Part shown: positions 5,143 to 33,347 of the stretch, in pieces | Layout of the letters: every line of letters starts with the position of its first letter | Position numbering within the stretch: position 1 is the stretch's first letter | Assembly (NCBI GenBank): GCA_951812955.1 | Contig: OX638340.1 | Coordinates: 2,688,001-2,752,000 of the forward strand | Direction: 5' to 3' | DNA: 64,000 nucleotides | Source of the DNA: an uncultured Gemmatimonadota bacterium | Lineage (GTDB): Bacteria; JAAXHH01 | Program-made: the position numbers and the translations under genes | Notes under the pieces: generated by a model | Told to the model about the DNA's origin: nothing | The model's input: only the letters and a program-made list of their open reading frames with translations | The model's database searches: none

Positions 5143-7545
5143 CTAATGCTCGCGCCGCAGCGCGTCCACCGGGTTCATCGTGGCGGCCTGAAGGGTCTGG
5201 GTACTCACCGTGATCCAGGCGATGAGCAGTCCGAGCAGGCCCGCGGCGGGGAACAACAGCAGCGAGATCTCGGTGTGATAGGCGTACTGCCGAAGCCACT
5301 GCTGCGTGACGAAGTAGGCCGCTGGCCAGGCGATGACGTTCGCAATTACCACGAGGATGGTGTATTCCCTTGAAAGTAGCAAGACGAGTTGCCGCGCCGA
5401 CGCGCCCAGGGCCTTCCGGATTCCCACCTCCCTGGTGCGCTGTTTCGCCGTGAAGACCGCAAGGCCGAACAGTCCGAGGCACGCCGTAAAGACCGCCAGC
5501 CCGGCAAACATGGTGACGAGCCGTCCCAGCAACTGATCCGAACGATACAGGCGTTCCACGTCCTGGTCGAGGAACGAATATACGAAGGGGATATCCGGCG
5601 TGGACGCCTTCCACATGGCTTCCAGGTCCCTCAAGGTTCCGCCGGGATCGCCGGGAACGAACCGCACGGCCCAGTAGCCGGAACCCCCGAAGGTGAAGAT
5701 TACCGGATCGATCCGCTCGTGGAGGCTCCTGAGGTGGAAGTCGCCCACCACCCCGACGACCTGCATCTCGCTGTTCCCCATTTTTACGAACTGATCCATG
5801 GCTTCTTCGGGCGATCCCCATCCCAGTCGACGGACCGCCTCCTCGTTCAGGAGACTTCCGGTCGATCTCCCCCATCCTCCTCCATCTGGGTCCTCGACCC
5901 ATTCGAAATCTCTTTCAAAGGATATGTCGCGTCCGACAAGCGACTCGAGCCCGAGCGTCCGTACAAGACCGCCCTCGGTATGGATGTGTTGCATCTCGAC
6001 CGTCCCCGCCGCCGGGTCGTCTACGCGGCCCACGGGCAGGATCGGCAGTCTCCCCCGGCCGGCCGCTCGTCCGGGCATGTAGTTCGCCCCGGCAACGCTG
6101 ACTACCCCGGCGTGCTGTGGGTAACGATCACGGATCATGTCGAAGTCCATGCCCTCGAGGTCGGGCAGGATCACCACGTGTTCCTTCTCGAATCCCAGGT
6201 GTTTCTCCCGCATGTACTCCAGCTGCTGGTAGACGGTTCCCGTGCCGAACATCAGCAGGATGGCCAGGGAGAATTGCATGACCACGAGGGCTTTTCGCAG
6301 GGTTGCGGCGCCGGTACCCGAAAGTCCGCGAAAGATCGCAACGGGACTGATCCGGGACAGCAGCAGGGCGGGGTAGGCGCCGGCGAGGACGCCCGCCGTG
6401 AGGATAATAGCCGTGCCGCCCAGAATTGACCACGGTTCGAGCGAAGGCATGGAAAGTACGTGGCCCGTCATGGACCGGAAGAGGGGCAGGACCACCCAGA
6501 CAGCGGCCAGGGCGACGAGGAACGCCACGGCACTCAGGAGTATGGTTTCACCCAGGAACTGGCGGCCGATCTGGCTTCTGGTGGCTCCTGAGACTTTGCG
6601 CATGCCGATTTCCCGGGCCCGGGAGATGGACCGGACAATCGCCAGATTCGTGAAATTCATGCAGGCAATCAGCAGGATGAAGACCGCGATGGCGATCAGC
6701 ATCCAGATGAAAGACACTTCGCCGTTTGCCTCCATCTCCAATTCCAGTTGAGAATGCAGATGGATATCGAAAAGCGGCTGCAATTCATAGGTGTGGGTAA
6801 AGGCCGTCGCCCGGACCGATGCGTCGACATGTTCCGTGAGCCGTGTCTGCAGCAGGTTGCCTATCTGTTCGGGCGAGACGCCGAGCGGCAGGAGCAGGTA
6901 GGTGTAGTACGCGCTGTTCGCCCAGTTTCTCAAAAGACCGATAGGATCGCCGCGTCCGGTCGTCGTGGCGATGGAGACGTAGAAATCGGGATGATAGTGG
7001 GCGTAAGGCGGTGGGTCTTCCATGATGGCGGTGATCGTGAAGGGAAACAGGTGGTCACCGGTGATCGTCTTGCCGATCGGGTCGGCGTCCCCGAAATACT
7101 TGCGGGCCATGGATGCGCTGATGACCATCGTATTCGGCGCCGTGAGCGCGGAGGAAGGGTTGCCGCGCACCAGGGAGACATCGAAGACTTCGAAGAGGTT
7201 GCCATCCGCCCAGTAGACCCGTTGCTCATAGAACTGCTTGTCTTCGGTGGTGAAAAGCCAGGTCCCCACGGTCGCCCGAAGGCGGAGCACTTGCTCCACT
7301 TCGGGAAGCTGCGTACCGATGAAGTCGCCCAGAATGCCGGGCGTCCGCGCCGTGCGATCCGTGACGACCCGGTATATACGGTCGCCGCGGGAGTTGTGCC
7401 GGTCGTAGCTCAACTCGTCGCGGATGTACAGCAGGATGACCAGGCAGCAGGCCATGCCGATGGCGAACCCGATGACGTTGATCGCGGCGTGGGACCTGGA
7501 CGAGAGTACGTTCCGCCAGGCGGTTAGGAGGTAGTGTCCGATCAT
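5143..7545 (-). CDS. ABC transporter permease, FtsX/MacB-like, with two FtsX domains (800 aa)
   Basis: N-terminal TM followed by a MacB-type periplasmic domain and repeated FtsX 4-TM modules. Typical 800-aa standalone permease. Confidence 0.8.
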   Translation of the reverse strand: MIGHYLLTAWRNVLSSRSHAAINVIGFAIGMACCLVILLYIRDELSYDRHNSRGDRIYRVVTDRTARTPGILGDFIGTQLPEVEQVLRLRATVGTWLFTTEDKQFYEQRVYWADGNLFEVFDVSLVRGNPSSALTAPNTMVISASMARKYFGDADPIGKTITGDHLFPFTITAIMEDPPPYAHYHPDFYVSIATTTGRGDPIGLLRNWANSAYYTYLLLPLGVSPEQIGNLLQTRLTEHVDASVRATAFTHTYELQPLFDIHLHSQLELEMEANGEVSFIWMLIAIAVFILLIACMNFTNLAIVRSISRAREIGMRKVSGATRSQIGRQFLGETILLSAVAFLVALAAVWVVLPLFRSMTGHVLSMPSLEPWSILGGTAIILTAGVLAGAYPALLLSRISPVAIFRGLSGTGAATLRKALVVMQFSLAILLMFGTGTVYQQLEYMREKHLGFEKEHVVILPDLEGMDFDMIRDRYPQHAGVVSVAGANYMPGRAAGRGRLPILPVGRVDDPAAGTVEMQHIHTEGGLVRTLGLESLVGRDISFERDFEWVEDPDGGGWGRSTGSLLNEEAVRRLGWGSPEEAMDQFVKMGNSEMQVVGVVGDFHLRSLHERIDPVIFTFGGSGYWAVRFVPGDPGGTLRDLEAMWKASTPDIPFVYSFLDQDVERLYRSDQLLGRLVTMFAGLAVFTACLGLFGLAVFTAKQRTREVGIRKALGASARQLVLLLSREYTILVVIANVIAWPAAYFVTQQWLRQYAYHTEISLLLFPAAGLLGLLIAWITVSTQTLQAATMNPVDALRREH

Positions 7546-7671: not shown

Positions 7672-8778
7672 TTAAGGCGCCAGCCTGTTCCAGTGGACGT
7701 CCATGGCCGTTTCGGTACCCGCGTAGTACACCACCAGGACCGTGCCGTCGGGCAGGGCTTCCGCATAGGGCAGGCCGAAGGACCACACCGAGAAGCCCAG
7801 GGCGCCCTTGGGATCTTCCTTAGGCGCCTCGTGGGTATACAGGGTCACCTCGGTTTCCGGATCGAACGTCCCGTCGATGGAAGGCGCGACGCGGGCCTTG
7901 ATGGACTGGTCGTGGAAGCGGTCCACCCACGGCAGGACGATGCGTCCGTCCGGCAGCACCGCGGGATGGGCCGCCTGGTCGGTGACGCCGATGTCTTCCG
8001 GCGCGGACCAGGTTCGCCCGCCGTCGGAGCTGACGCGGCGGTGAATGTTCAGGTAGGATTCCGTTTCGGTGTTGTAGGTCCAGGCGAACGCACCGATTCT
8101 GCCGTCCGGCGCCACGGCCGACCGCAGATCCCAGTTGTAGATCAGGCCCGTCGGATCGAACCCGATGTTCACCGGTTCACCCCAGGTCCTTCCCCCGTCC
8201 GTGGAGTGAAATGCGACGACCCGCTGGTACCATTTCGAGGTGTCGAGGTAGTGCTTGTTGGTTTCGATGGTCATGACCAGGGCGCCGTCCGGAAGTTGCA
8301 TGATTGGATTGGTCAGGCTCGCCGGTCCAATCTCCTCCGGCATGGGTACCTCGCGCCACGCCGTCCAGGTTTTTCCCCCGTCCGCGGAGTCCGCCAGGAG
8401 GATGGACATGGGCACGCAGCCCTCGGTCTCCGGATTGAAGAGTCCCGGGGCGTCAGGATAGGTTTCGCGGTCGATCCACATTGATGCGGCGATGATCCGT
8501 CCGGGCGCCAGTTCAGTCAGGTAGACGATCTTGACCGTCCCCCGGACTCCGTGAAGCGTTGGGCTTCCGAAGGGGCGTTCGGGTGCGCTCCAGGTCTTTC
8601 CGAGATCGGAGGAGCGGCTGAGTTCCACCACTTCGTCCGCGCAGTCCTTCGTCGTGCCGCTGTGCCAGGTGGCGATCAGCGTGCCGTCGGTCTTGCTAAG
8701 GACTGAGGGGAACGTGAGATTGGCCCGGTCCGTGCCGGGCGTGCTGCGGCTGAGGACGCCGGAGTCGACGATGCGCAT
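7672..8778 (-). CDS. BNR/Asp-box repeat glycoside hydrolase, sialidase-like
   Basis: Four SxDxGxTW Asp-box motifs (SSDLGKTWS, SADGGKTWT, STDGGRTWG, SSDGGRTWS). Confidence 0.7.
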   Translation of the reverse strand: MRIVDSGVLSRSTPGTDRANLTFPSVLSKTDGTLIATWHSGTTKDCADEVVELSRSSDLGKTWSAPERPFGSPTLHGVRGTVKIVYLTELAPGRIIAASMWIDRETYPDAPGLFNPETEGCVPMSILLADSADGGKTWTAWREVPMPEEIGPASLTNPIMQLPDGALVMTIETNKHYLDTSKWYQRVVAFHSTDGGRTWGEPVNIGFDPTGLIYNWDLRSAVAPDGRIGAFAWTYNTETESYLNIHRRVSSDGGRTWSAPEDIGVTDQAAHPAVLPDGRIVLPWVDRFHDQSIKARVAPSIDGTFDPETEVTLYTHEAPKEDPKGALGFSVWSFGLPYAEALPDGTVLVVYYAGTETAMDVHWNRLAP

Positions 8779-8819
8779 GGTGGCTGGCCTTTCGAGATTG
8801 GTTGTTAAACCTTTTTCAG

Positions 8820-8866
8820 TTCGGATGTGCCTTCACGATTCGGATGTGCCTTCCATGTTCGGATCC
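8820..8866. repeat. Short tandem repeat (ttcggatgtgccttc x2 plus a partial third copy) upstream of the sialidase-like gene
   Basis: Direct reading of the sequence. Confidence 0.6.
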
Positions 8867-8891: not shown

Positions 8892-10883
8892 TCAGACCCG
8901 TTTGATCCCCTCGCACAGATCGATCATGGCGGAGAGGATGGATTCCGCCAGGCAGTCGATGGCTTCCCGTGTTCCCGCGATGTCTACCGAGGCCGCCGAA
9001 ACGTAGCACTTGACCGTGGGTTCGGTGCCCGACGGTCGCACGATGACCCGCGTATGTCCGGACTCAGAAAAGGTGAAGACCAGGATATCCGCGCGATCGC
9101 CGTCAACGGGCGTAGTCGTTCCCGTTCGCAGATCCTGCGCCTGGCCGCTCTGCCGGTCGATCACGCGGCAAACGGCGCGTCCGCCTATCCGCTCGGGAGG
9201 CGCTTCACGCAGCGCGGCCATCATGCCTTCGATCCTCCGTGTGCCCTCCGCGCCGGGCAGCGCGACCGACCGCTGGACTTCCCTGAAATATCCGTACGTT
9301 CGGTAGATATCGTCCAGTTCATCGCGCAGGGTGCGGTTGTCCTTCTTCGCCAGGGCGGCGAACTCGGCGAGCAGGATGCCGGTGGCAGCCTCCTTGTCCC
9401 GTATCCGGGCGTCGGCCAGATAGCCGTGGCTTTCCTCGGTACCGAACACGAAGGACATATCCGGCGGCAAGCCTTCGATCGCCGCGCCAACGTGTTTGAA
9501 ACCGATGGGCAGGTCGTCGATGACCTCCAGTCTGAAGGACCGGGCGATGATCGAGGCAAGGTCCGAGGTGACCAGCGTCTTGCAGAACAGACCCCTAGGG
9601 GGCAGCGTACCCGCCGCTTGCTTCCGGCTGAGTATGTAGTGGCAGAGGAGGACGCCGATCTGGTGACCGTTTAAACTCAGTTCTTCCGGCGGAGCTTCCC
9701 ATCCCCTGTCCGGCAGCGGCAGCGCGCACCCGATCCGGTCGGCGTCGGGGTCGCTCGCGAGCACGAGGTCCGCGCCGACTTCCGCGGCTTTTCTGAAGCC
9801 CAATTGAAAGGCCGCCGGTTTTTCGGGGTTTGCGATCCCATGGTCCAGCGTGGAGAACGCACCGTCCGGGACGACCTGCTCATCCACGTAGTGCACGTCC
9901 TCATAACCCAGCTTATCCAGTGCCGCGGCCACCGAGGTCATGCCCACGCCGTGCAGTGGGGTATACACCACACGCACGTCTCGGCCATCGGCCAGCGACA
10001 GGTCCGACAGGACGCCGATATACCCCTCGTCCAGGTCCCTGCCGATGATCCGGATCAGGCCGTTTCGGAGGCCTTCTTCGTAGTCGATCCGCCTGATCTC
10101 ACCGGCCTGCCTCATCTCTCTCGTGATGTCCCCGTCCCGGGGCGCCACCACCTGCCCCCCGTCGGGTCCGTAAACCTTGAATCCGTTGTCTTCGGGTGGA
10201 TTGTGGCTCGCGCTGATCATCACACCGGCCGCCGCCCGGAGTTCGCGGACGGCGAAGGAAAGCGCGGGGGTGGAGCGAAAACCGTCGAAGATCAGGACGT
10301 CTATGCCGTTGGCGGCCAGCACGCCGGCCGTCTCTTTCGCAAACAACTCCGAATTGCGCCGGGTGTCCCATGCCACGACGACGCCGCGCGCCCCAGCGGG
10401 ACCGCGGTGATTTTCACTAACTTGCCCATCACCGCCTTGCCCATCGCCCTCGAGCCCTGCACCGACACGTTCCCCGTCGCCATCGTCGCCCTGCCCATCG
10501 CCGCCTCGCCCATCACCTTCGCGCTCTGCACCGACGCGATCCCTGTCGCGCTCTGCACCCTCGCGATCCCCATCGCCTCTCCCCATCATCCCGGTGACAT
10601 ACCTGGCCAGTCCCTGTGCCGCCAGGCCCACGGTGTGGGTGTTGAGCCGGTTCGGCCCCGGTCCCATCCGACCTCGGATGCCGCCCGTTCCAAAGGAGAG
10701 GACCGAACCGAATGCGTCCTCCAGTTCGTCGGTGCCGCCGGCATCGATGAGGGCATGGATCTCATCCCGGTACGCCGCGAGGCCGGGCTCCGTAGACCAT
10801 AGTACCAGGGCATCCGAGGCCGCACGGGACAGGATGCCGTTTTCGGTCCAGGCGTTGATCCTGCTGACGCGTTGTTGATTCAT
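8892..10883 (-). CDS. Phosphoglucomutase/phosphomannomutase-family alpha-D-phosphohexomutase, with a low-complexity insertion
   Basis: N-terminus ...AFGSVLSFGTGGIRG and the active-site ISASHNPPEDNGFKVY are as expected. ATG at 10883, so the track ORF's 105-aa N-extension is rejected. A Gly/Asp/Arg-rich insertion of about 65 aa is present. Confidence 0.8.
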   Translation of the reverse strand: MNQQRVSRINAWTENGILSRAASDALVLWSTEPGLAAYRDEIHALIDAGGTDELEDAFGSVLSFGTGGIRGRMGPGPNRLNTHTVGLAAQGLARYVTGMMGRGDGDREGAERDRDRVGAEREGDGRGGDGQGDDGDGERVGAGLEGDGQGGDGQVSENHRGPAGARGVVVAWDTRRNSELFAKETAGVLAANGIDVLIFDGFRSTPALSFAVRELRAAAGVMISASHNPPEDNGFKVYGPDGGQVVAPRDGDITREMRQAGEIRRIDYEEGLRNGLIRIIGRDLDEGYIGVLSDLSLADGRDVRVVYTPLHGVGMTSVAAALDKLGYEDVHYVDEQVVPDGAFSTLDHGIANPEKPAAFQLGFRKAAEVGADLVLASDPDADRIGCALPLPDRGWEAPPEELSLNGHQIGVLLCHYILSRKQAAGTLPPRGLFCKTLVTSDLASIIARSFRLEVIDDLPIGFKHVGAAIEGLPPDMSFVFGTEESHGYLADARIRDKEAATGILLAEFAALAKKDNRTLRDELDDIYRTYGYFREVQRSVALPGAEGTRRIEGMMAALREAPPERIGGRAVCRVIDRQSGQAQDLRTGTTTPVDGDRADILVFTFSESGHTRVIVRPSGTEPTVKCYVSAASVDIAGTREAIDCLAESILSAMIDLCEGIKRV
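10400..10605. repeat. Degenerate tandem repeat (about 63-bp period) encoding a [GDRE]-rich insertion inside the phosphohexomutase gene
   Basis: Repeated gccctgcaccgacacgttccccgtcgcc-like units. The encoded protein segment is GRGDGDREGAERDRDRVGAEREGDGRGGDGQGDDGDGERVGAGLEGDGQGGDGQ. Confidence 0.7.
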
Positions 10884-10951: not shown

Positions 10952-12907
10952 TTAGAAGAACTGGAGTTCGTGTATTGACCCTCGAAAATACCAGAAGTCC
11001 ACCAGGATCGCAACGGCGGCGCCGAGGACATAGCCTACCATGATGCCGATCATCAGCGGCTGGACAGCCTGGTAGAGGCGTACACCGCCTACCCTGATCA
11101 GTATGGTTTTCAACAGCCAGGCCAGAAAGACGGGAAAGAATGCGTTGCGCGCGGGACCGCCGGCGGCCACCACGAAACCGATAGGCGAAATGGGCCACCA
11201 GCTGAAGTAATAGCGGGCAACGCTCATACCCGTGACCATGGCCATGCCCACGACCAGGAAGAACACCTCCGCACCCGAAATGGTGGTACTGTTCTGCATC
11301 CAGGTTATGATCAAGTTATAGAAACCGGGGTCTCCGGCGATATTGTTGTAGTAATTCGCCGCACCGCCCAGCCGGTATCCGGAATAGGCCGAAAAACCGA
11401 TGGCCGTAATCGAGCTGACGACGAAGGTGACCGATGCCCAGAAGAACAGGACCCGTCCGGAGACGCCGAGTATGGACTGCATCCGCGCGACGTGGGAGGG
11501 GATGATCATCGTAAAGGTCTTCCAGTTGCGTGCAAAAGCGCTTCCCAAGCCCAGGGCCGTCAGGTTCTGCGGCGACAGTGAGGCGGAGCCCAGCATGCCC
11601 ACAGTAAACTGGTGGGCGTTGATGGGCAGGTCCAGGAAGACCAGCCCCGATTCCGCCATCACGCGGCACAGTGCGAAGTAGAAGAGGAAAAGCAGGACGA
11701 GAAAGACGGCGATCACCGGGAAGGACATGCCGATCACGTGCAGCCACCAGGAGATATAGGCCATGCCGCAGACGCCCGTGACCAGGGCCGCCCGGTAGGA
11801 AATGAACTCGTCTTCGTCGCGCAGGTTCGTTTCGTGTCCCCGTACGTGGCGCCACACCATCGCCAGGTGCCGCCGCGCGATCCAGAAACCCCAGAGCGCG
11901 AAGGCGATCATGCCCCCGATGAACTGCACGGCGACCAGTCCGCCCGGTATGGCCGTACCCGAGGCTGCGACAACGCCGACCCGGGCCAGGATGCCCTGCT
12001 GTAGCGTATTGATGATCTGGAACAGCCACACGCTGAAAAGGATATCCACGTTGATGAAGTAGGAGAAGGCAAAGGTGAGGACGTTCATTCGGATTGGATG
12101 CGCCGGAAAAGCATGTCCGAAATTAACGCTGAGCACGGTGCTCGCGTCGACGGGAAAGGACGACCACTGGGTCCAGTATGATGCGGTGTTCCAGAGCATG
12201 ATGGAGAAGGTGACCACCGCGCCGGTGATGAACATGCGGTTTCGCATGATCGTCGGCAGGACGGCGTCCGGCTCATCCTTCGTTTCCGTCATGACGACCG
12301 GCGCCTGGACGAGGGGATAGGAAAGCCGCTCGTGCTCGACCCACTGCCTGCGCATCAGGATGACGAAGCAGATGCCCACGGCCAGGAGGCCGCCAAAGAA
12401 AGACAGCCACCAGAACGACGGAATGATCCAGGCCGCCCAGGGGATCGGCATGCTTTCTGGTAGGCCCCAGTAATAGTCCCGGTTCGCGTTCTGTTCGTTC
12501 GTGACGATGAGCCAGTCGGGCAGATAGGCGAAGAACATCTCGCGCCACTGGTTCTCGGGCGACGCGAAGTATTCCGCCGTGGCCATCACGTTCACGACGT
12601 AGTTGGACATGCCCCAGGTCGGCACCATGAAACCGACCCAGCCAAGTACGAAAACGAAGAGTACTTCTTTGTCCCGCAATCCCAATGACGGACGGATCGC
12701 CTTGACCAGCAGGTTGGGACCCAGGACACCCAGCAGGAAGGGAATCAGCAGGGCGAGATCTATGTGGGCGAAGGTAAGGTGCACATACCCCAGGTGGTAG
12801 TTGCTCGACACGGAGAAAAGATTGACGACGACGGCCAGGGCCAGGCCCGCCGCCACCGCCCGGGGCGTTACCACCTTCGAGGAGGTTCTTTGTTCCAGTT
12901 CGCTCAT
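10952..12907 (-). CDS. Uncharacterised polytopic membrane protein (651 aa), paralog A of a tandem pair
   Basis: At least 12 predicted TM segments. Conserved blocks (NANRDYYWGLP, FSYFINVDILFSVWLFQIINTL, YYFSWWPISPIGFVVAAGGP) are shared with the downstream paralog. Confidence 0.7.
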   Translation of the reverse strand: MSELEQRTSSKVVTPRAVAAGLALAVVVNLFSVSSNYHLGYVHLTFAHIDLALLIPFLLGVLGPNLLVKAIRPSLGLRDKEVLFVFVLGWVGFMVPTWGMSNYVVNVMATAEYFASPENQWREMFFAYLPDWLIVTNEQNANRDYYWGLPESMPIPWAAWIIPSFWWLSFFGGLLAVGICFVILMRRQWVEHERLSYPLVQAPVVMTETKDEPDAVLPTIMRNRMFITGAVVTFSIMLWNTASYWTQWSSFPVDASTVLSVNFGHAFPAHPIRMNVLTFAFSYFINVDILFSVWLFQIINTLQQGILARVGVVAASGTAIPGGLVAVQFIGGMIAFALWGFWIARRHLAMVWRHVRGHETNLRDEDEFISYRAALVTGVCGMAYISWWLHVIGMSFPVIAVFLVLLFLFYFALCRVMAESGLVFLDLPINAHQFTVGMLGSASLSPQNLTALGLGSAFARNWKTFTMIIPSHVARMQSILGVSGRVLFFWASVTFVVSSITAIGFSAYSGYRLGGAANYYNNIAGDPGFYNLIITWMQNSTTISGAEVFFLVVGMAMVTGMSVARYYFSWWPISPIGFVVAAGGPARNAFFPVFLAWLLKTILIRVGGVRLYQAVQPLMIGIMVGYVLGAAVAILVDFWYFRGSIHELQFF

Positions 12908-12997
12908 GCTCTATACGGCGCGCCGCGATCTGCGCATTGGTCGGTGCCGTGGCCGGCGCGTTCACCGGACGGCAAGTGGCCCATAACGGGTCCCGTT

Positions 12998-14953
12998 TCA
13001 AAAGGAATGGGGATTATGAACGGCTCCGGGAAAATACAGCAGATCGGCCAGGATAGCAATGGAAGCGCCAAGGACGTAGCCCACGAGGATGCCGATCATC
13101 AACGGCTGAACGGCATGGTATAGCCGCACGCCGCCTGCCCTGATCAGGATGGTTTTCAACAGCCAGGCGAGAAGGACCGGGAAGAAGGCGTTGCGGGGCG
13201 GACCGCCGGCCGCTACCACGAAGCCGATGGGTGAAATGGGCCACCAACTGAAGTAGTAACGGCATACAGTCATTCCCAGGACCATCGCCATGCCCGCGAT
13301 CAGAAAGAACACCTCGGAACCGGAAATCGTCGTGTTGTTCTTCATCCAGCTGATGATCAGGTCGTAGAATCCGGGGTTACCTGCGATATCAGCGTAGAAG
13401 TTCGACGCGCCGCCGAGCCGGTATCCGGAATAGGCTGTGAAGCCTACGGCGGAAATCGCGCTGAGGGAGAAGGCGACGGCGCTCCAGAAGAACAGTGTGC
13501 GCCCTTCGACGCCAATCACCGATCTCAGCCGCGCGACGTGGGACGGTATGATCATGGGAAAGGTCTTCCAGTTGCGCGCGAAAGCGCTTCCCAGGCCCAA
13601 CGCCGACAGGTTCCGGGGTGAAAGCGAAGCGGAGCCCAGCATGGCGACGGTAAACTGGTGGGCGTTAACGGGAAGGTCCAGGAAGACCAGTCCGGATTCC
13701 GCCATTACGCGGCAGAAGGCGAAGTAGAATAGGAACAGCACCGTCAGAAACGCGGCGATCACCGGAAAGGACATGCCCACGGCGTGCAACCACCACACGA
13801 TGTAGGCCATGCCGCACGCCCCGGTGATCACGGCCGTCCGGTAGGAGAAGAACTCGTCCTCGTCACGCAGGTTCGTGGCGCCTCCCAGCACATGGCGCCA
13901 CACAGTCCCCAGGTGCCGCCGCGCGATCCAGATCCCCCAGAGCGCGAAGGCGATCATCCCGCCGATGAACTGGACTGTGACCAGCCCTCCAGGTACGGCG
14001 GTTCCTGAATCTGCGATGATGCCGAGCCGGGCCAGGACGCCTTGCTCCAGCGTGTTGATGATCTGGAAGAGCCATACGCTGAACAGGATGTCCACGTTGA
14101 TGAAGTAGGAGAATGCGAAGGTAAGGACGTTCATGCGAATGATTTGAACCGGGAAGGCGCGGCCGATCTCGATATTGATCAGGAACTTCGTATCGATGGG
14201 AAAGGACGTCCATTGCGTCCAGTATGACACCGTGTTCCAGAGCATGAGGGAAAACGTGATGATAGCGCCGGTGATGAACAGCCGGTTGCGCATGATCGAC
14301 GGCAGGACCGAATCCGTTTCGTCGTCCGCATCCGTCATGACGACCGCCGTCTGCGCGAGGGGATAGGAAAGGCGCTCGTGCTCGGCCCATTGCCGGCGCA
14401 TCAGGACGACATAGCAGAGGCCGACGGCTAGCAGGCCGGCGAAAAAGGAAAACCACCAGAACACGGGAATGATCCACGCCGCCCAGGGAATCGGAGCGCC
14501 GGCAGGAAGACCCCAGTAGTAGTCCCGGTTCGCGTTCTGTTCGTTCCTGATAATTACCCAGTCCGGGAGAAAGGGGAAAATCAGTTCGCGCCACTGGTTC
14601 TCGGGCGTGGCGTAGTATTCCGCCGTGGCCATCATGCCGACCAGGTAGTTCGACATGCCATAGGTGGGTACCATGAAACCGATCCAGCCCAGGACGAAGA
14701 CGAACAGGAGTTCCTTGTTTCGCAGTCCCCACGACGGATTAATCGCCTTGACCAGGATATTGGGGCCAAGTACGCCCAGGAAGAAAGGGATCAGCAGGCC
14801 GAGGTCGATATGGGCGAAGGTGAGATGGGTAAACCCGACGAGATAACTGGTCGACACCGACAGGATGTTGACCGCGACGGCCAGCGCCAGACCCATGATT
14901 ATGGCCCGGGGGGTCGCTGCGCGCGGGCTGGACGGGTCGACCGTATCGGTCAT
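12998..14953 (-). CDS. Uncharacterised polytopic membrane protein (651 aa), paralog B
   Basis: Collinear with paralog A over its full length at roughly 70% identity. Confidence 0.7.
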   Translation of the reverse strand: MTDTVDPSSPRAATPRAIIMGLALAVAVNILSVSTSYLVGFTHLTFAHIDLGLLIPFFLGVLGPNILVKAINPSWGLRNKELLFVFVLGWIGFMVPTYGMSNYLVGMMATAEYYATPENQWRELIFPFLPDWVIIRNEQNANRDYYWGLPAGAPIPWAAWIIPVFWWFSFFAGLLAVGLCYVVLMRRQWAEHERLSYPLAQTAVVMTDADDETDSVLPSIMRNRLFITGAIITFSLMLWNTVSYWTQWTSFPIDTKFLINIEIGRAFPVQIIRMNVLTFAFSYFINVDILFSVWLFQIINTLEQGVLARLGIIADSGTAVPGGLVTVQFIGGMIAFALWGIWIARRHLGTVWRHVLGGATNLRDEDEFFSYRTAVITGACGMAYIVWWLHAVGMSFPVIAAFLTVLFLFYFAFCRVMAESGLVFLDLPVNAHQFTVAMLGSASLSPRNLSALGLGSAFARNWKTFPMIIPSHVARLRSVIGVEGRTLFFWSAVAFSLSAISAVGFTAYSGYRLGGASNFYADIAGNPGFYDLIISWMKNNTTISGSEVFFLIAGMAMVLGMTVCRYYFSWWPISPIGFVVAAGGPPRNAFFPVLLAWLLKTILIRAGGVRLYHAVQPLMIGILVGYVLGASIAILADLLYFPGAVHNPHSF

Positions 14954-16443
14954 AGGCTGTACAGGGAGCTGTACTTATCGTGTACGTAAGCCAGGAAGTA
15001 ATCCGCCGATAGCACTTCGCCGGTGACGTGCTGCACGAGTTCACCGGCGCGGTAGGTCATGCCGGGCCGATGGATGCGGTCCCTGAGCCAGTCTCGAAGG
15101 GGAAGCAATTCTCCGCGTGCGATTCGTTCCGACAGGTCGGGTATTTCCCGCTCGGCGGCGCGGTAGAACTGGGCGGCGTAGAGATTCCCAAGGGTATAGG
15201 TGGGGAAATACCCGAAACTTCCGTGCGACCAGTGGATGTCCTGCAGCACGCCGTCCCGGTCGTCCGGTGGCTCGATGCCGAGAAAGGCCTTCATATTCTC
15301 GTTCCATACCGCCGACAGATCGCCCGCCGCGTATTCGTCCGTGAACAGTCCGCGCTCTATTTCGAACCGGAGCAGGATGTGGAGATTGTAGGTGATTTCG
15401 TCCGCTTCCACCCGGATGAGCGAGGGTTTCACCTCGTTAACCGCGGCGTAGACTTCTTCTTCGCTCACGTCCGCCGAGTTTTCAGGGAATATCGCCGAGA
15501 ATTCGGGGAAGAAGTGTTGCCAGAATGCCCTGCTTCGACCGACCATGTTTTCCCACATACGGGATTGGGATTCGTGTATGCCGAGGGACACCGAAGCCCC
15601 GCGGGGCGTGCCCTCGTTCTCCGGGTCGTGTCCCTGTTCATAGAGACCGTGCCCCGCCTCGTGGATCACGCCGTAGAAGGATTGCATGGGGAGCGTCTCG
15701 GAATACCGGGTCGTCATTCGGACGTCGTTGACGCCCATGTGCGTGCAGAATGGATGGGGAGAGATATCCAGGCGGCCTGCCTCGAAATCGAAGCCCATGC
15801 GTTCGGCGGCCATGACGCCCATGCGCCGCTGGTCGTCGACGGGGTAGTTACGCTCCAGGAAATCGGTGCGAGGCTTGACGCCAGAGTCGGCGATGCGCTG
15901 CACCAGGTCCACGAGGGGACCACGTATAGAATCGAAGACCGCCGCGGTCTCTTTCGTCGAAGCGTAAGGCTCGTATTCATCGAGCAGCGCGTCGTAGGGT
16001 TCGTCCTCGTATCCCACCGCCTCGGCGACCTCGCGCTGGAGGGCGACCAGCTTGTCGACCCACGGGGCGAAAGCCGGGAAATCATCCTCCTGCCGGGCTT
16101 TGATCCACACACCGATGGCCGCCGAACTCGTTTCCGCCAGGTCCTTGACCAGGCCGACGGGGATCTTTACCGCCCGGTCGCTGAAACGGGAAATCTCGCG
16201 GACGTTGACCTCTTCGTCGGCCGTCAGCGATTCGGAACGGGCCCCGTCCAGCGCGCCGCGCATTTCATCGGAGGTGATCCGTTCGTGGGCCATGCCTGAG
16301 AGCGTGGCGAGTTGCCGTCCCCTGCTGGCCGCGCCCTTGGGGGGCATGTAGGTTTCCTGGTCCCACCCCATCAGGGCCAGGGCGGCGTACAGGTCACTTA
16401 TCTCCCGATAGATCTCCATTACCCGATCATAGTGCTTTGGCAC
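14950..16443 (-). CDS. M32 metallocarboxypeptidase (carboxypeptidase Taq family)
   Basis: HEAGHGLYEQG (HExxH), HPF and IRVEADE motifs. Length is typical. Confidence 0.85.
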   Translation of the reverse strand: MPKHYDRVMEIYREISDLYAALALMGWDQETYMPPKGAASRGRQLATLSGMAHERITSDEMRGALDGARSESLTADEEVNVREISRFSDRAVKIPVGLVKDLAETSSAAIGVWIKARQEDDFPAFAPWVDKLVALQREVAEAVGYEDEPYDALLDEYEPYASTKETAAVFDSIRGPLVDLVQRIADSGVKPRTDFLERNYPVDDQRRMGVMAAERMGFDFEAGRLDISPHPFCTHMGVNDVRMTTRYSETLPMQSFYGVIHEAGHGLYEQGHDPENEGTPRGASVSLGIHESQSRMWENMVGRSRAFWQHFFPEFSAIFPENSADVSEEEVYAAVNEVKPSLIRVEADEITYNLHILLRFEIERGLFTDEYAAGDLSAVWNENMKAFLGIEPPDDRDGVLQDIHWSHGSFGYFPTYTLGNLYAAQFYRAAEREIPDLSERIARGELLPLRDWLRDRIHRPGMTYRAGELVQHVTGEVLSADYFLAYVHDKYSSLYSL

Positions 16444-16523: not shown

Positions 16524-17819
16524 CTAGTTGCCCAGGACCGGTTGGACGCGCAATTCAAGCAGGCCATGGGCCCTTCGAAGCACTTGTTCCACCTGGCCGG
16601 GTTGATCTCCTCGTGCGAATATGAAACCGGGGTAACTGGCGCCTTCGGGAAGCGGAGTCAGCAGGTCGCCTTCCTTTGCGGTGATTACCACGTCTTCCAC
16701 GCCCGGAACCTTCTTCGCCGTTTCGACACCGTCGTATCGCAGAAACTGTCCGCTTTCCGGAACGGGCAGCATCATCACGCCCGCGGCCTTCGTCTGCCCG
16801 GTACTTCGCCCGAAGTCCGTCGCGTCGAGACCTGTACCGCTCGTGTCCTGTCCCAGGGCGTGACGCAGGATGAGTTCCTCCAGGGACAGCCCGATTCCGA
16901 ACTCCAGGACGCGCGAGCAAAGCCCCCCGATGGATCGGCCGGCGATTTCAATGATCCTGGCCTCGCCGTGGTGGATGCGCAGTTCGGCGTGGACCGGACT
17001 CTCCGACAGGCCCACGGCCGTGGAAGCCCTTTGTACGGCTTCGGCTACGACCTTTTGCGTCTTGCCGGGCAAGCGCGAAGGCGTTATGTAAATCGACTCC
17101 TCGAAATAGGGCCCCTCCAGCGGATCGGGCTTGTCGAACAGCGCGAGCACGCGCAGCAGTCCGCCGGTCAGTAATCCCTCCAGGGCTACCTCTGCGCCTG
17201 GTATGTAGGATTCCACCATGATGCGTCGGGCGTCGGGATCGAGGCTCGGCGGCCTGTCCGTCGCGCTGTCGAGTAGGTGGCTGATTCTCCGGAATGCTTC
17301 TATAAAGCCTGATGGCGAGTCGGCCCGTATTACGCCCCGGCTGCCCGATAGCAGGACGGGTTTGAGCACACAGGGGTAAGGTTGCTCCAGCGCGATTTCC
17401 TCGACCGGGACCGACAGGTCGAACAGGGCGAAATACGGGTTCCATACCCCCGCGGACGAGAGCATTTCACGCATGCGGTACTTGTTGCGCGCGGCGACGG
17501 CCGCTTCGGGCGTGTTGTGCGGAAGGTCGAGGATCTGACATGCCCTGGCGGCGATCTCGGTGGTATAATCGTCGACTGGTACGATGGCATCGAGGGTATG
17601 ATCACGGGCGTAGGCCACGATTTCCTCCACGGCCTGCGACACGTATCTCAGCCGAAGCGACAGCGGGACGTCCCAAGCTTCCGCCAGCACGTGGCAGAAG
17701 TCCGAACCCACGACGACTTCAATGCCCATACGCCGCGCCGCAGCCAGAAACGGATCCGCGCGATAGGTCGTCGTCGGCATCAGGAGCAGTAGTTTTTTGG
17801 ACCGGGTCTCTGCTGGCAT
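16524..17819 (-). CDS. ATP-grasp domain protein (carboxylate-amine ligase-like)
   Basis: A pre-ATP-grasp fold followed by ATP-grasp fold features (VLKP, ESYIPG, EINPR-like). Confidence 0.65.
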   Translation of the reverse strand: MPAETRSKKLLLLMPTTTYRADPFLAAARRMGIEVVVGSDFCHVLAEAWDVPLSLRLRYVSQAVEEIVAYARDHTLDAIVPVDDYTTEIAARACQILDLPHNTPEAAVAARNKYRMREMLSSAGVWNPYFALFDLSVPVEEIALEQPYPCVLKPVLLSGSRGVIRADSPSGFIEAFRRISHLLDSATDRPPSLDPDARRIMVESYIPGAEVALEGLLTGGLLRVLALFDKPDPLEGPYFEESIYITPSRLPGKTQKVVAEAVQRASTAVGLSESPVHAELRIHHGEARIIEIAGRSIGGLCSRVLEFGIGLSLEELILRHALGQDTSGTGLDATDFGRSTGQTKAAGVMMLPVPESGQFLRYDGVETAKKVPGVEDVVITAKEGDLLTPLPEGASYPGFIFARGDQPGQVEQVLRRAHGLLELRVQPVLGN

Positions 17820-21300: not shown

Positions 21301-21309
21301 GGAAGGTAT

Positions 21310-21396
21310 GCCGGGGTGGTGGAATTGGTAGACACAGGAGACTTAAAATCTCCCGGACCTCAATAGTCCGTGCCGGTTCGAGTCCGGCCCTCGGCA
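21310..21396 (+). tRNA. tRNA-Leu (anticodon UAA), type II with a long variable arm
   Basis: The cloverleaf was read manually. It has a GCCGGGG acceptor, an anticodon loop cuUAAaa, a long variable stem-loop and a GTTCGAGTC T-loop. Confidence 0.85.
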
Positions 21397-21435
21397 TTCG
21401 GGGTCGTGAACAAACTGGTGAATGCTGGATATGCA

Positions 21436-21509
21436 GGGCGCTTAGCTCAGATGGTTAGAGTGCCACGTTGACATCGTGGAGGTCAGTGGTTCGATCCCAC
21501 TAGCGCCCA
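21436..21509 (+). tRNA. tRNA-Val (anticodon GAC)
   Basis: Acceptor GGGCGCT/AGCGCCC, anticodon stem CCACG/CGTGG with loop TTGACAT, and T-loop GTTCGATCC. Confidence 0.8.
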
Positions 21510-21597: not shown

Positions 21598-22647
21598 ATG
21601 AAAATCACGGATATCAAGGCCGTCTACCCGGCATGGAAGAAAAAGGGGTCGGGCGCCTGGCAAGAGTATTACTGGCAGATCGTGGTCCGGGTGGAGACGG
21701 ACACCGGCGTCCTGGGGTACGGGTACGGCGGAGGCGGAGAACCCGGCAAACTGATCGTCAACGGTCATCTGCGCGATGCGCTGATTGGCAGGACGATCGG
21801 CAGCGTGGATGATATTCGCGACACCTGGGACCATCTCTACTTCAAATCCCTGCCGTACGGCCGCAATGGCATTGTGATCATGGCCCTCAGCGGAATCGAT
21901 CTGGCCCTGTGGGACCTGCTCGGTAAAACCGAAGGCAAGCCCGTATACGAGCTGATCGGGGGATTGAAGAAGGACAAGGTCCGTGCCTACGCGACAGGGG
22001 GCGACCCTGCACGGGTCCGCGACCTGGGCTATACGGCCGTAAAGCGCTCGCACAAGTGGCGGTCTGACGCCGACTACGACGTAGCCGCGGTCCAGGCGGC
22101 CCGGTGCAGGGAGCTGTTCGGTCCGGACGCGCTGCTCATGTTCGACTGCTACATGTCCTGGGATGCCTGGGTAGCCCTGCGGATGCGCGAAATCCTGGCC
22201 GAATACGAACCCTACTGGTTCGAGGATCTCATCACCCCCGACCATCTGGACGAACTGGCCGAACTCAGGCCGCGGCTGGCGCCTGTTCTACTGGCCGGCG
22301 GCGAGCACGATTTCTCCCACCATGCGTTCCGCGCCATTGCCCGCGCCGGCGCCCTGGACCTGTGGCAGCCCGATATCACCTGGTGCGGTGGAATAACGGC
22401 GGGGTTGCGCATCCTGGACCTGGCCAGATCGCAAGGGGTGCCTGTATGTCCCCATCGTGGGGGCGAAATCTGGGGGCTGCACCTAATCGCCGCGACGGAT
22501 TGCATGGATCTGGCGGAGACCCACCCGGATAGGCGGAACGATATGGACGGCTCGGTGCTGCTCGACGAGCCCGTGGTATCCGGCGGCGAGATCGCACCGG
22601 CTGACCGTCCGGGGTTCGGCGTCACGCTGAAACCGGCGTATTGCTAG
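21598..22647 (+). CDS. Enolase-superfamily enzyme (mandelate racemase/muconate lactonizing enzyme-like, probably an acid-sugar dehydratase)
   Basis: N-terminal capping domain followed by a TIM barrel. The conserved acid/base and metal-ligand segments are in place (GIDLALWDLLGK, FDCY, EDL, GEHD, WCGGIT). Confidence 0.8.
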   Translation: MKITDIKAVYPAWKKKGSGAWQEYYWQIVVRVETDTGVLGYGYGGGGEPGKLIVNGHLRDALIGRTIGSVDDIRDTWDHLYFKSLPYGRNGIVIMALSGIDLALWDLLGKTEGKPVYELIGGLKKDKVRAYATGGDPARVRDLGYTAVKRSHKWRSDADYDVAAVQAARCRELFGPDALLMFDCYMSWDAWVALRMREILAEYEPYWFEDLITPDHLDELAELRPRLAPVLLAGGEHDFSHHAFRAIARAGALDLWQPDITWCGGITAGLRILDLARSQGVPVCPHRGGEIWGLHLIAATDCMDLAETHPDRRNDMDGSVLLDEPVVSGGEIAPADRPGFGVTLKPAYC

Positions 22648-30546: not shown

Positions 30547-30670
30547 CATGGCACGCACGGCCGGTACGATCGGCAGGCATGGCACGCACGTCCCGCAGGC
30601 ACGGCAGGCACGCGTGGCAGGCAGGCACGACACCCACGGCAACGGCACGCACGGCCGGTCGGCACGTGGT
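30547..30670. repeat. Array of GGCACGCACG/GGCAGGCACG decamer repeats in the htpG / substrate-binding-protein intergenic region
   Basis: At least five copies read directly. It underlies the spurious N-extension of the 617-aa track ORF. Confidence 0.6.
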
Positions 30671-30730
30671 CACGGACCGCCGTATTTCAAGCTGTCATCA
30701 AACCATTGGCATCTTCAGGTAGCTGTCATT

Positions 30731-32401: not shown

Positions 32402-33347
32402 GGATATTCTTCGGGGTGAGTGGGGACTCCGGGGTGAACGGAGACTGTCCGCTCTCATTTTCCTTCTCACGCCGCTCCTCCTGGGCGCCTCGGCCCTGTT
32501 CTGGATTCCCGGGGCGGCAGTGGCGCAGGAAAGTCCGGTCATCCTCGAAGCGATCAGCGTCCTCCCCGTGGAAGGTCCCGAATCCAACCAGCCATCGGGA
32601 CTCTTCGTCCATCAAGACACCCTGTTTACCGTTTCCGACAAGCACGACGATACCATCTTCAGGATTGAACTTCGGGAGGATGCCGCGGTTTTCGTGCCAC
32701 ACGTCCGTTTCGACCCACCCAGACCCTTCGGTGTGTTCAGGCTGGACCTGGAAGGCATCACCCGCGATGAGGACGGAAGTTTCTATCTCGTCAGCGAAGG
32801 GGCCTTCGCCATTCTGAAGGTCGACGCGGACTCGAAAAAGGCATCCTGGGTCACCACGAACCTACGGGACGTGGGCGCTTCGGCGGGGCTCTTCCAGACC
32901 CGCGGCGGTTATCTCGAGGGGATCACGCTGATGGCCAAAGACCGGTTTCTGGTCACCGCCGAACGGCAGCCCTGCGGCCTGATCGAAGTCGACATGGCCC
33001 CCGTGCAAAGGGTCGTGGAGATCGCTAATCATGGATCGACGAACAGTTACACGGGTCTGCACCGGGAGGTCGAAAACGTATACATTCTGCAGCGGAGCAC
33101 CGCGACCATCCGGAAGACCATCCGGTACCTGGACGTGGACAGTCCCTCGGCGATCTGGTCCTTCGCCCATATCGTCAACGACCCGGAATATCTCTATCAG
33201 CACGAACAATTCGGCGCGAAAACGGCAGAGGGACTCGCCATGGACCGCGACCGGGTCTACGTCATCCTCGATAACAACAATGACGCGCGCAGGATGTATC
33301 CCACCGATCACAGGCCCTTGCTCCTGATCATGAAGCGGCCCGACTGA
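32391..33347 (+). CDS. Secreted beta-propeller-like protein (SdiA-regulated / phytase-like esterase family)
   Basis: Signal peptide, and a DLEGITRDEDGSFYLVSEG block resembling the YjiK/phytase-like propeller families. The family call is tentative. Confidence 0.4.
   Translation: MGSRDILRGEWGLRGERRLSALIFLLTPLLLGASALFWIPGAAVAQESPVILEAISVLPVEGPESNQPSGLFVHQDTLFTVSDKHDDTIFRIELREDAAVFVPHVRFDPPRPFGVFRLDLEGITRDEDGSFYLVSEGAFAILKVDADSKKASWVTTNLRDVGASAGLFQTRGGYLEGITLMAKDRFLVTAERQPCGLIEVDMAPVQRVVEIANHGSTNSYTGLHREVENVYILQRSTATIRKTIRYLDVDSPSAIWSFAHIVNDPEYLYQHEQFGAKTAEGLAMDRDRVYVILDNNNDARRMYPTDHRPLLLIMKRPD

Follow-up and report, generated by a model that had tools for sequence, protein, structure and literature searches.

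Tandem DUF6785/DUF6784 membrane proteins of an uncultured Gemmatimonadota bacterium are predicted to be OPT-like transporters

Here we describe a tandem pair of membrane-protein genes in a 64,000-nucleotide stretch of DNA (the window) from an uncultured Gemmatimonadota bacterium. Paralog A, the downstream gene (positions 10952–12907), and paralog B, the upstream gene (12998–14953), both lie on the minus strand, start with ATG and encode 651 amino acids; a 90-nt spacer (12908–12997, minus strand) separates them. The first-pass annotation of this DNA had described full-length, collinear paralogs of this size, and its coordinates are exact. BLASTP aligned the two proteins without gaps at 75% identity (490/651 residues; 87% positives; E = 0), which bears out the close paralogy that had been claimed, with an identity higher than the roughly 70% first given. 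The blocks singled out there as highly conserved, NEQNANRDYYWGLP, FSYFINVDILFSVWLFQIINTL and YYFSWWPISPIGFVVAAGGP, occur in the same form in both proteins. A Kyte–Doolittle scan over 19 residues found approximately 13 separate hydrophobic spans per paralog.

The flanking genes are also on the minus strand. Upstream of paralog B lies a gene of the M32 (carboxypeptidase Taq) family (14950–16443; Pfam PF02074, E = 3.2e-178), the TGA stop of which overlaps the ATG of paralog B (ctATGAcc). The M32 gene is itself preceded, at a distance of 80 nt, by a gene for an ATP-grasp, L-amino-acid-ligase-like protein (16524–17819; Pfam ATP-grasp_4 and LAL_C2); the best PDB relatives of this protein are the L-amino acid ligase BL00235 (1e-35) and BacD. 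This synteny is seen only in close relatives, and the gene is possibly the first of a transcription unit shared with the M32 gene and the paralogs. A phosphoglucomutase/phosphomannomutase-family gene (PGM; 8892–10883; Pfam PGM_PMM_I–IV) is located 68 nt downstream of paralog A. Its likely start is the ATG at 10883 rather than the longest-ORF start at 11198; the orthologue in a related locus (L087) was called at the equivalent position. A BNR_2 gene (7672–8778; Pfam BNR_2, 2.2e-21), encoding a sialidase-like beta-propeller, follows after a gap of 113 nt. Both the phosphohexomutase and the BNR neighbour had been recognized before, and the M32 gene had been overlooked. Promoter and terminator scans returned sites no more frequent than in shuffled sequence and none in the A–B spacer. 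Rfam gave two tRNAs as its sole matches and no riboswitch. The window also contains an OppA-like binding-protein gene (30548–32401).

Both paralogs are full-length DUF6785 plus DUF6784 proteins. In paralog A, DUF6785 spans residues 14–514 (E = 5.5e-95, 319.2 bits) and DUF6784 spans residues 549–640 (2.1e-20, 73.2 bits); in paralog B, the corresponding domains span residues 14–514 (4.1e-94, 316.3 bits) and 549–638 (3.8e-19, 69.2 bits). The domains are in the expected order and above the Pfam gathering cut-offs (25 bits for DUF6785 and 26.4 bits for DUF6784), and the DUF6785 profile was covered from position 1 to 498 of 498. These Pfam entries carry no functional description, and a literature search found no mention of DUF6785 or DUF6784. 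Neither paralog matched NCBIfam, nor the PDB by sequence or profile search, in agreement with the earlier statement that the proteins could not be assigned to a known transporter or polymerase family. A profile search placed 7,919 clusters at 50% identity in the family, 3,015 of them with E ≤ 1e-30, and all of the 120 homologues listed carry either both domains or DUF6785 alone. The sources are mostly metagenome-assembled genomes (MAGs) of Latescibacterota and Gemmatimonadota, and also of Zixibacteria and Planctomycetota; the closest relative (94% identity) derives from a metagenome of Ircinia variabilis.

The similarity between A and B is far above chance, and the pair is an old, ordinary tandem duplication. 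Both genes are under purifying selection (codon-level dS 0.78, dN 0.15, dN/dS 0.19). In the tree, both the A-type and the B-type copy are accompanied by orthologues from other genomes, the B-type clade including those of L024, L003 and L004 (bootstrap 91), and a 62%-identical single-copy gene diverges before the A/B split. The B-type copy is missing from L001 and L002, which have only the A-type gene, and is frameshifted in L006. An obligate A–B heterodimer, considered by analogy with the homodimer of barley Yellow Stripe 1 (HvYS1), is thus unlikely, because the B-type copy is dispensable in some relatives. The two proteins probably differ slightly in specificity or affinity. Comparison of the N-terminal with the C-terminal half gave no significant internal repeat (P = 0.015).

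We predicted the structure of paralog A with AF2, using no templates and an alignment of 52 sequences (pLDDT 87.9, pTM 0.90). The model contains 25 helices, among them broken helices and short hairpin helices. With these helices and the approximately 13 strong hydropathy spans, the earlier estimate of at least 12 transmembrane segments is reasonable; members of the OPT superfamily have 16 (or 17). The only structural neighbour of the model is HvYS1 (PDB 7WSR/7WST), a member of the YSL clade of the OPT superfamily with the OPT/Yellow-Stripe fold, onto which 543 residues could be superposed. As expected of an OPT fold, the predicted structure combines a YS-type core with a scaffold, and most of its chain can be superposed on HvYS1. 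Within it, a broken helix (residues 79–92 and 101–113) and paired short helices resemble the described YS core, and HvYS1 likewise has a broken helix and hairpin-like elements. An OPT-like fold for paralog B is taken from its 75% identity to the modelled protein.

The most conserved motif of the family, RRQWVEHERLSYP (residues 186–198 of A; positions 12314–12352, minus strand; counterpart in B at 14360–14398), aligns with the OPT motif 'LRRxLVVxxxLPYPEG'. Among the 52 sequences, Q188, W189, R194, L195 and P198 are invariant, and R186, E191 and E193 are at least 90% conserved. R186, L195 and P198 paired with the OPT-invariant R125, L134 and P137 in all four independent hhalign runs. Where OPT proteins have P-L-R-R-x-L-V-V-x(2-4)-L-P-Y-P-E-G after TM3/4, paralog A has LMRRQWVEHERLSYPL, and the E-G after the proline is not kept. 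Other family motifs are ENQW and a long, conserved Trp-rich loop (residues 114–157), the latter lacking in OPT proteins. Conversely, two motifs that are invariant in OPT proteins, ENNxVQT and QDLKTG, are not retained as such in the family. QDLKTG, in the C-terminal half, is invariant in OPT alignments A3 and A5 and has no conserved DUF6785 counterpart; the aligned segment, 'IIPSHV..ARMQSIL', in a region of low-confidence alignment, carries no conserved acidic residue. After position 372, the residues at least 90% conserved in the 52 sequences are G, W, L, P, Y and F, with D637 as the only acidic one. The aspartates proposed as proton sites in HvYS1 (D446, D490 and D494) have no conserved equivalents in the family. 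D490 and D494, together with Q493, belong to QDLKTG, so the family may couple transport to ions in a different way or not at all.

At the level of sequence, none of the 52 family members matched the Pfam OPT model PF03169 (0/52, even at E ≤ 10), which detected Saccharomyces cerevisiae Opt1 as a positive control at 1.8e-166. HvYS1, with 11–14% identity to the family, was not matched by a HMMER profile search. Using hhalign with balanced alignments, the family aligned with prokaryotic OPTs plus HvYS1 over approximately 500 collinear columns (P = 3e-5 to 2.7e-6; probability 50–88%, and 73–88% with six prokaryotic OPTs plus HvYS1), and all nine forward comparisons (P = 2.7e-6 to 0.024) were better than their own reversed-sequence controls (P = 0.15–0.65; 22–83 columns). 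The signal collapsed against fungal OPTs (probability 2%, P = 0.023), and the score worsened against a proteobacteria-heavy alignment to which 14 proteobacterial sequences had been added (probability 2.5%, P = 0.019). By conventional thresholds the sequence-level link therefore falls short, and it varies with the alignment used; given the drop on adding the proteobacterial sequences, we do not claim membership of the OPT superfamily by sequence. Yeast Opt1 was tried as a bridge and abandoned: phmmer did not reach HvYS1 from it, and the fungal OPT profile gave the value above against the family.

Peptidase genes recur beside family members. The homologue neighbourhoods, which the first-pass annotation had proposed to examine, contain the M32–ATGA overlap in seven related loci (L087, L001–L004, L006 and L024), and the same 4-nt overlap occurs in divergent subfamilies (28–33% identity) with genes for mutually unrelated exopeptidases, namely an M55 peptidase (L091), an M20 peptidase and a giant M28-containing protein. 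Genes of these peptidase families accounted for 12/155 genes adjoining a family member versus 8/449 at least three positions away, in a comparison for which the seed families were picked because they had already been seen beside the gene and in which many loci are not phylogenetically independent (neighbour genes called with a GC3 filter). Bacillus subtilis offers a parallel to the M55–DUF6785 coupling in L091: its dpp operon for peptide transport includes the gene for the M55 peptidase DppA. Opp/Dpp ABC systems and the POT/PTR family would share the proposed role, small-peptide uptake feeding cytoplasmic peptidases, although their folds and families are unrelated to those of A and B. Prokaryotic OPTs (PF03169/TC 2.A.67, for example the plasmid-borne genes L081–L086) are of similar length (635–678 residues versus 651), as is HvYS1; they share with the family the invariant R, L and P of 'LRR..LPYPEG', which in HvYS1 and the family takes the form R...L-x-[YF]-P after a long helix near residue 190, and they often have peptidases in their gene context (PMC3061005). 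They differ in their taxonomic centre, which is unlike the Latescibacterota, Gemmatimonadota, Zixibacteria and Planctomycetota MAGs of the family, and no OPT genes were found near family members in 80 loci.

Part of the gene context points to sugars rather than peptides. An OPT-like transporter could carry carbohydrate-derived cargo (an oligosaccharide, sugar acid, amino sugar or sialic-acid-like compound) to be processed by the BNR_2 protein and the phosphohexomutase, the genes for which lie directly downstream of paralog A on the same strand. A BNR_2 gene is also present near the 62%-identical single-copy orthologue (L088/L089), the start of which overlaps an MR_MLE_C gene, and other subfamilies adjoin genes for AP_endonuc_2, GFO/IDH/MocA, SDR, sulfatase, alpha-L-fucosidase, pectate-lyase-like and CBM9 proteins. 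PhyH and MR_MLE genes of the sugar-acid dehydratase type are likewise among the tight neighbours elsewhere in the family; together with PGM and BNR_2 here, such neighbours point to sugars or other organic compounds for much of it. Oligosaccharides have been proposed as substrates of one prokaryotic OPT subcluster (PMC3061005). The MR_MLE gene in the window is closest to rhamnonate/galactonate dehydratases, and we therefore rejected a reading of the MR_MLE neighbours as dipeptide epimerases in support of peptide uptake. Yet no gene at the locus is linked to the pair as tightly as the M32 gene with its ATGA overlap; PGM and BNR_2 stand behind gaps of 68 and 113 nt; PGM is a common housekeeping enzyme, and the PDB sialidase matches of the BNR_2 protein are weak. 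We regard a carbohydrate-derived cargo as rather unlikely.

Other functions are considerably less probable. Operons of L-amino acid ligases that make dipeptide antibiotics usually contain an exporter, as in the bacilysin bac operon, and the ATP-grasp gene, co-directional with the pair and two genes upstream of it, could in this way supply a dipeptide-like product for export by the paralogs. We give this little credence: a carboxypeptidase between ligase and transporters fits degradation and not synthesis, the ligase association is limited to close relatives, and the characterized OPT members are all uptake symporters (PMC3061005). Import of a metal chelate (metallophore- or nicotianamine-like) is suggested by HvYS1 being the only structural neighbour and by the clustering of prokaryotic OPTs with the YSL division, the 'iron-siderophore subdivision' (PMC3061005), but is very doubtful, as peptides were inferred for most prokaryotic OPTs from gene context (PMC3061005), genes for metallophore biosynthesis, TonB-dependent receptors or metal regulation were found neither here nor in the sampled loci, and the substrate-binding residues of HvYS1 cannot be confidently mapped onto the family. 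We do not expect A and B to carry the HvYS1 substrate, Fe(III)-phytosiderophore, and the Cys250–Cys671 disulfide and the sterol-dependent dimer of HvYS1 are features of plants. The first-pass annotation had instead proposed an enzyme-like membrane protein (a polymerase, ligase or flippase, to which a glycosyltransferase may be added) on account of loop motifs with conserved charged and aromatic residues. ENQW, the Trp-rich loop and RRQWVEHERLSYP are such motifs, and in some distant subfamilies the neighbours include large TPR proteins and a giant M28/MacB_PCD/FtsX protein, with one possible fusion. However, comparison of the model with GT-C, Wzy/O-antigen ligase, MurJ/MOP and other membrane-enzyme folds revealed no similarity above background, the predicted chain as a whole superposes on a transporter, and the RRQW...YP motif has an OPT-transporter counterpart; a membrane enzyme is thus highly improbable. 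The same annotation was right to doubt a simple channel. It had named as contrary evidence a confident match to a characterized transporter family together with a gene duplication of the ordinary sort: the fold and the duplication history are essentially of that kind, and a confident sequence-family match is lacking.

We conclude that A and B are very likely OPT-like transporters of a very divergent bacterial branch, and likely importers. That the substrate at this locus is peptides is a tentative assignment. Since the predicted structure matches the OPT/Yellow-Stripe fold only, nutrient import, probably of peptides, is the most likely function, and we favour, with moderate confidence, a pair of secondary-active importers of the OPT superfamily (TC 2.A.67) that arose by old duplication and probably take up small peptides. 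By analogy with HvYS1, each protein would contain a scaffold domain and a substrate-binding core that includes helical hairpins and a discontinuous helix. Movement of the core relative to the scaffold would import a small organic solute together with a cation, probably H+. Imported peptides would then be degraded by the cytoplasmic M32 carboxypeptidase, to which paralog B is translationally coupled.

More speculatively, and with less likelihood than the above, DUF6785/DUF6784 proteins might form a large, unrecognized sister branch of the OPTs in which the canonical coupling chemistry has been replaced (no QDLKTG acid pair; an invariant E81, E118-N119-x-W121 and a Trp-rich external loop). Repeated tandem duplication might have made them a main system by which uncultivated Latescibacterota and Gemmatimonadota, sponge symbionts among them, take up organic nutrients, with subfamilies for peptides, sugars and other compounds and with some members in a fixed module with the giant M28-peptidase/MacB_PCD/FtsX membrane protein, coupling extracytoplasmic proteolysis to import. 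The tandem pair by itself is an ordinary duplication and of little interest. If confirmed, the assignment would give a testable function, that of an OPT-fold secondary transporter, to a large DUF family from phyla known almost only by metagenomes, and would provide a bacterial, sequence-divergent point of comparison for the OPT/YSL fold, until now represented by a single plant structure. It would also make for better metabolic reconstructions in Latescibacterota and Gemmatimonadota, sponge-associated lineages among them, where these abundant, multi-copy proteins are at present blank.

Two adjacent minus-strand genes, a downstream copy (A, 10952..12907) and an upstream copy (B, 12998..14953), each begin with ATG in the ORF listing, encode 651 residues and are separated by a spacer of 90 nt. 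The two proteins align by BLASTP with 490 of 651 identities (75%; 87% positives) and zero gaps, and a hydropathy scan gives each about 13 strong hydrophobic spans. The tandem of full-length 651-residue membrane paralogs described by the first-pass annotation is thus confirmed, its figure of about 70% identity being slightly low; the three conserved blocks that it quoted are found in A and B and are identical in both. Comparison of the nucleotide sequences (dS 0.78, dN 0.15, dN/dS 0.19), together with the ORFs and the hydropathy, indicates that A and B are intact and under purifying selection. Divergence between them is clustered at the N terminus, TM1, loops 125-137, 208-218 and 247-275, and the C-terminal tail.

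Both proteins have the Pfam domain DUF6785 (residues 14-514, E ~1e-95) and, C-terminal to it, DUF6784 (residues 549-640, E ~1e-20). No NCBIfam model matched either protein, no PDB chain was matched by sequence or by family profile, and our literature search found no paper mentioning DUF6785 or DUF6784. A profile search, exhaustive over 1.84 billion cluster representatives, returned 7,919 clusters at E <= 1e-3, of which 3,015 reach E <= 1e-30. Scanning a single genome for each species gave at least 591 loci, the best 80 of which lie mostly in MAGs of Latescibacterota, Gemmatimonadota, Zixibacteria and Planctomycetota; a genome often has several loci. All 151 proteins from a word-indexed homologue search are annotated as 'hypothetical', the named ones deriving from Latescibacteria, Zixibacteria and Handelsmanbacteria MAGs. 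The isolate labels of several family-bearing MAGs (such as IRC1_bin_16, APA_bin_41 and SB0665_bin_8) resemble what we take to be sponge-derived bin names. Scored on an alignment of 52 sequences (26-94% identity), the invariant residues are E81, E118, N119, W121, W132, W167, Q188, W189, R194, L195, P198, R345, G393, G421, G554 and G577. Five of the 52 DUF6785 proteins give weak matches to UPF0182 (Pfam PF03699; best E 2.5e-4), which could reflect remote relatedness or compositional bias.

The predicted fold of A uniquely matches an H+-coupled symporter of the oligopeptide transporter (OPT) superfamily. The AlphaFold2 model, built without templates on the 52-sequence alignment, has a mean pLDDT of 87.9, a pTM of 0.90 and 25 predicted helices, one of them broken (79-92/101-113) and several of them short and paired. 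Two independent methods pointed to one fold. In a Foldseek search of the PDB only two matches were significant, both to barley Yellow Stripe 1 (HvYS1; 7WST and 7WSR; E 4-6e-8, probability 1.0, TM 0.63-0.71), the next-best match having an E of 0.014 and a TM of 0.09. HvYS1, the one OPT-superfamily member whose structure has been solved, is a proton-driven symporter in two parts: a scaffold domain, through which it dimerizes, and a 'YS core' whose TM2 is discontinuous and which also contains helical hairpins and inverted repeats. An elevator mechanism has been proposed for it, and it was without structural neighbours when published (PMC9691689). In the fold comparison of A, membrane polymerases, ligases, glycosyltransferases and flippases did not score above background. 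The earlier suggestion of an enzyme-like membrane protein, such as a polymerase, ligase or flippase, is therefore not supported, the fold matched being that of the OPT superfamily.

Sequence comparison provides weaker support for a link to OPT than the fold match. No family member matches Pfam OPT (PF03169), even at E <= 10. For profile comparisons we drew OPT sequences from Saccharomyces cerevisiae Opt1 and its fungal relatives, from HvYS1 (taken from the PDB alignment) and from six annotated plasmid-borne prokaryotic OPT genes found by tblastn with HvYS1, the prokaryotic proteins (635-678 aa) being similar in size to A and B. Aligned by hhalign to the six prokaryotic OPTs plus HvYS1, the DUF6785 profile gives a probability of 73% (P 3e-5) over 502 collinear columns spanning residues 12-614; other balanced OPT subsets give 50-88% (P 1.6e-4 to 2.7e-6), fungal OPTs 2.1% (P 0.023) and an OPT alignment enriched in proteobacterial sequences 2.5% (P 0.019). 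Each of the nine forward comparisons outscores its reversed-sequence control (P 0.15-0.65, 22-83 columns). In every run the most conserved DUF6785 motif, LMRRQWVEHERLSYPL (A 184-199), aligns with OPT 'IPLRRxLVVxxxLPYPEG', such that R186, L195 and P198 of A fall on OPT-invariant R125, L134 and P137. Invariant E81 aligns with the Glu of OPT 'ENNxVQT' in some runs and not in others, and because of this inconsistency it is only a candidate ion-coupling residue. DUF6785 conserves no equivalent of the OPT-invariant 'QDLKTG', where the proposed proton-binding Asp residues of HvYS1 lie. A long loop rich in Trp (residues 114-157), conserved in DUF6785 and taking in the NEQNANRDYYWGLP block of the first-pass annotation, is absent from OPTs. 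In the weak alignment, Y41-V42 of A (F41-T42 in B) and W98 of A (Y98 in B) are candidate A-B differences at positions of interest, among which are those equivalent to G76, V78, F130, S136, Y451, K482 and Y551 of HvYS1, which may line a cavity. In our reading DUF6785 belongs to the OPT structural superfamily as a very divergent branch, outside the OPT family as currently modelled.

At the locus, the minus-strand gene order is an ATP-grasp L-amino-acid-ligase-like gene (16524-17819), an M32 carboxypeptidase (14950-16443), B, A, a phosphohexomutase (PGM/PMM, 8892-10883), BNR_2 (7672-8778) and an 800-residue ADOP-like MacB/FtsX permease (5143-7545; MacB_PCD plus FtsX). The stop codon of M32 overlaps the start of B as ATGA, the remaining gaps in the series being 68-126 nt; B is thus translationally coupled to the M32 carboxypeptidase, which is of cytoplasmic type. 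Consensus scans at the locus showed no promoter or terminator enrichment and a riboswitch search found none. The closest relative (L087; JGI 3300003251, contig IrcVar142_1000358; 94% protein identity), from an Ircinia variabilis sponge metagenome, keeps the gene order and the ATGA overlap of the window. A sponge-associated, Latescibacterota-like bacterium is the probable source of the window. The M32-transporter overlap is kept in six related genomes, as is the downstream order with some variation, and since these genomes are close relatives the conserved arrangement counts as one observation.

Several other features of the window were recorded. The permease gene at 5143-7545 is syntenic with the transporter pair in close relatives; its product gives a full-length match to the ADOP 'duplicated orphan permease' model (2.2e-80, below cut-off), and no ATPase gene adjoins it. 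Within the PGM/PMM gene on the minus strand, a 27-nt tandem repeat (2.9 copies, 10504-10580) codes for part of a low-complexity insertion rich in Gly, Asp, Arg and Glu ('...GDGDREGAERDRDRVGAEREGDGRGGDGQGDDGDGERVGAGLEGDGQGGDGQ...') in phosphohexomutase domain I, and the spacer separating the PGM/PMM stop from the BNR_2 start holds a 19-nt tandem repeat (2.7 copies, 8815-8864). On the plus strand, tRNA-Leu(taa) and tRNA-Val(gac) (21309-21509) lie upstream of an MR_MLE gene (21598-22647) of the rhamnonate/galactonate-dehydratase type. An OppA-like family-5 solute-binding protein gene (30548-32401, plus strand; NCBIfam OppA 1.4e-75, below cut-off) is followed by an ORF (32391-33347) with no NCBIfam match.

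The duplication is old, tandem and under purifying selection. A neighbour-joining tree built from A, B and their counterparts at syntenic loci puts the upstream copies (B, L024, L003, L004) together with a bootstrap of 91. The downstream copies (A, L001, L002, L006, L024, L003, L004) form a second group, the node of which carries no bootstrap value once the tree is rooted. A single-copy gene, 62% identical and from a MAG labelled Zixibacteria, branches ahead of the A/B split. These groups and the early-branching gene place the tandem duplication before the genomes concerned diverged. An A-type copy is the only one in L001 and L002. In L006, a complete MAG chromosome, one frameshift at about nt 7083 divides the B-type copy (L006:5978-7931) into parts that are 93% and 91% identical to B; it may mark a genuine pseudogene or come from faulty assembly. 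Some lineages thus do without B, which speaks against an A-B heterodimer being obligate. Elsewhere too, family members are adjacent or in tandem, in about 24 of the 80 loci.

The neighbourhoods of family members are heterogeneous, and the most telling pattern is a 4-nt stop/start overlap with an upstream hydrolase gene that recurs in divergent subfamilies. Such overlaps join an M55 D-aminopeptidase to a family member 33% identical to A (Handelsmanbacteria contig), and an M20 peptidase to one at 28% identity (5.9-Mb genome). A third partner, found at several loci of Latescibacterota and Gemmatimonadota, is the gene for a giant membrane protein of about 1,540 residues with M28-peptidase, MacB_PCD and FtsX regions; in L061 and L065 its stop shares 4 nt with the start of the DUF6785 gene. 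An MR_MLE_C gene likewise overlaps the start of the 62%-identical orthologue by 4 nt. In a distant subfamily, the giant gene, the DUF6785 gene and a gene for a 660-residue protein without Pfam or NCBIfam match form, in that order, a conserved three-gene module (L065:3379-7989, L061:3175-7923, L071:1828-3810; equivalents in L048, L056, L059 and L063). The 2,120-residue database protein P0185 joins MacB_PCD/FtsX to DUF6785/DUF6784, either as a genuine fusion or through an artefactual frameshift. An NhaC-type 'Na_H_antiporter' (PF03553) gene lies directly upstream of the DUF6785 gene on the same strand at L019:6521-7993, L037:6587-7993 and L094:5489-6895 (gap of 7 nt in L019 and L037) and may encode a second transporter or an ion-recycling partner.

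A and B are very probably OPT-like transporters and would be secondary-active ones, the core moving against the scaffold in an elevator-type manner as proposed for HvYS1; that they act as importers is probable. At this locus they would import small peptides to be trimmed by M32, A and B differing modestly in specificity or affinity. Peptides are a tentative assignment, the main rival being carbohydrate-derived compounds, as suggested by the PGM and BNR_2 neighbours. Across the family, genes of the peptidase families seen in the overlaps make up 12 of 155 genes directly beside a member, 6 of 131 at distance two and 8 of 449 further off, a count biased because the seed families were picked after being seen beside family genes, and drawn from phylogenetically non-independent loci. 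Non-peptide substrates in many subfamilies are suggested by other tight neighbours, among them xylose-isomerase-like TIM barrels (at least five cases), PhyH dioxygenases, oxidoreductases of the SDR and GFO/IDH/MocA types, sulfatases, one fucosidase and NhaC-type antiporters. The MR_MLE gene of the window belongs to the sugar-acid dehydratase type. This mixed context resembles that of the OPT family, for which context analysis in prokaryotes indicated mostly peptides, with oligosaccharides for one subcluster (PMC3061005).

The outcome that the first-pass annotation named as refuting its reading, a match to a characterized transporter family together with an ordinary duplication history, is seen at the level of the fold. 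We found no publication placing DUF6785 in the OPT superfamily, an assignment that the Pfam clan or TCDB may already record. A very large DUF family can be placed in the OPT structural superfamily, where it forms a divergent variant bearing motifs of its own.
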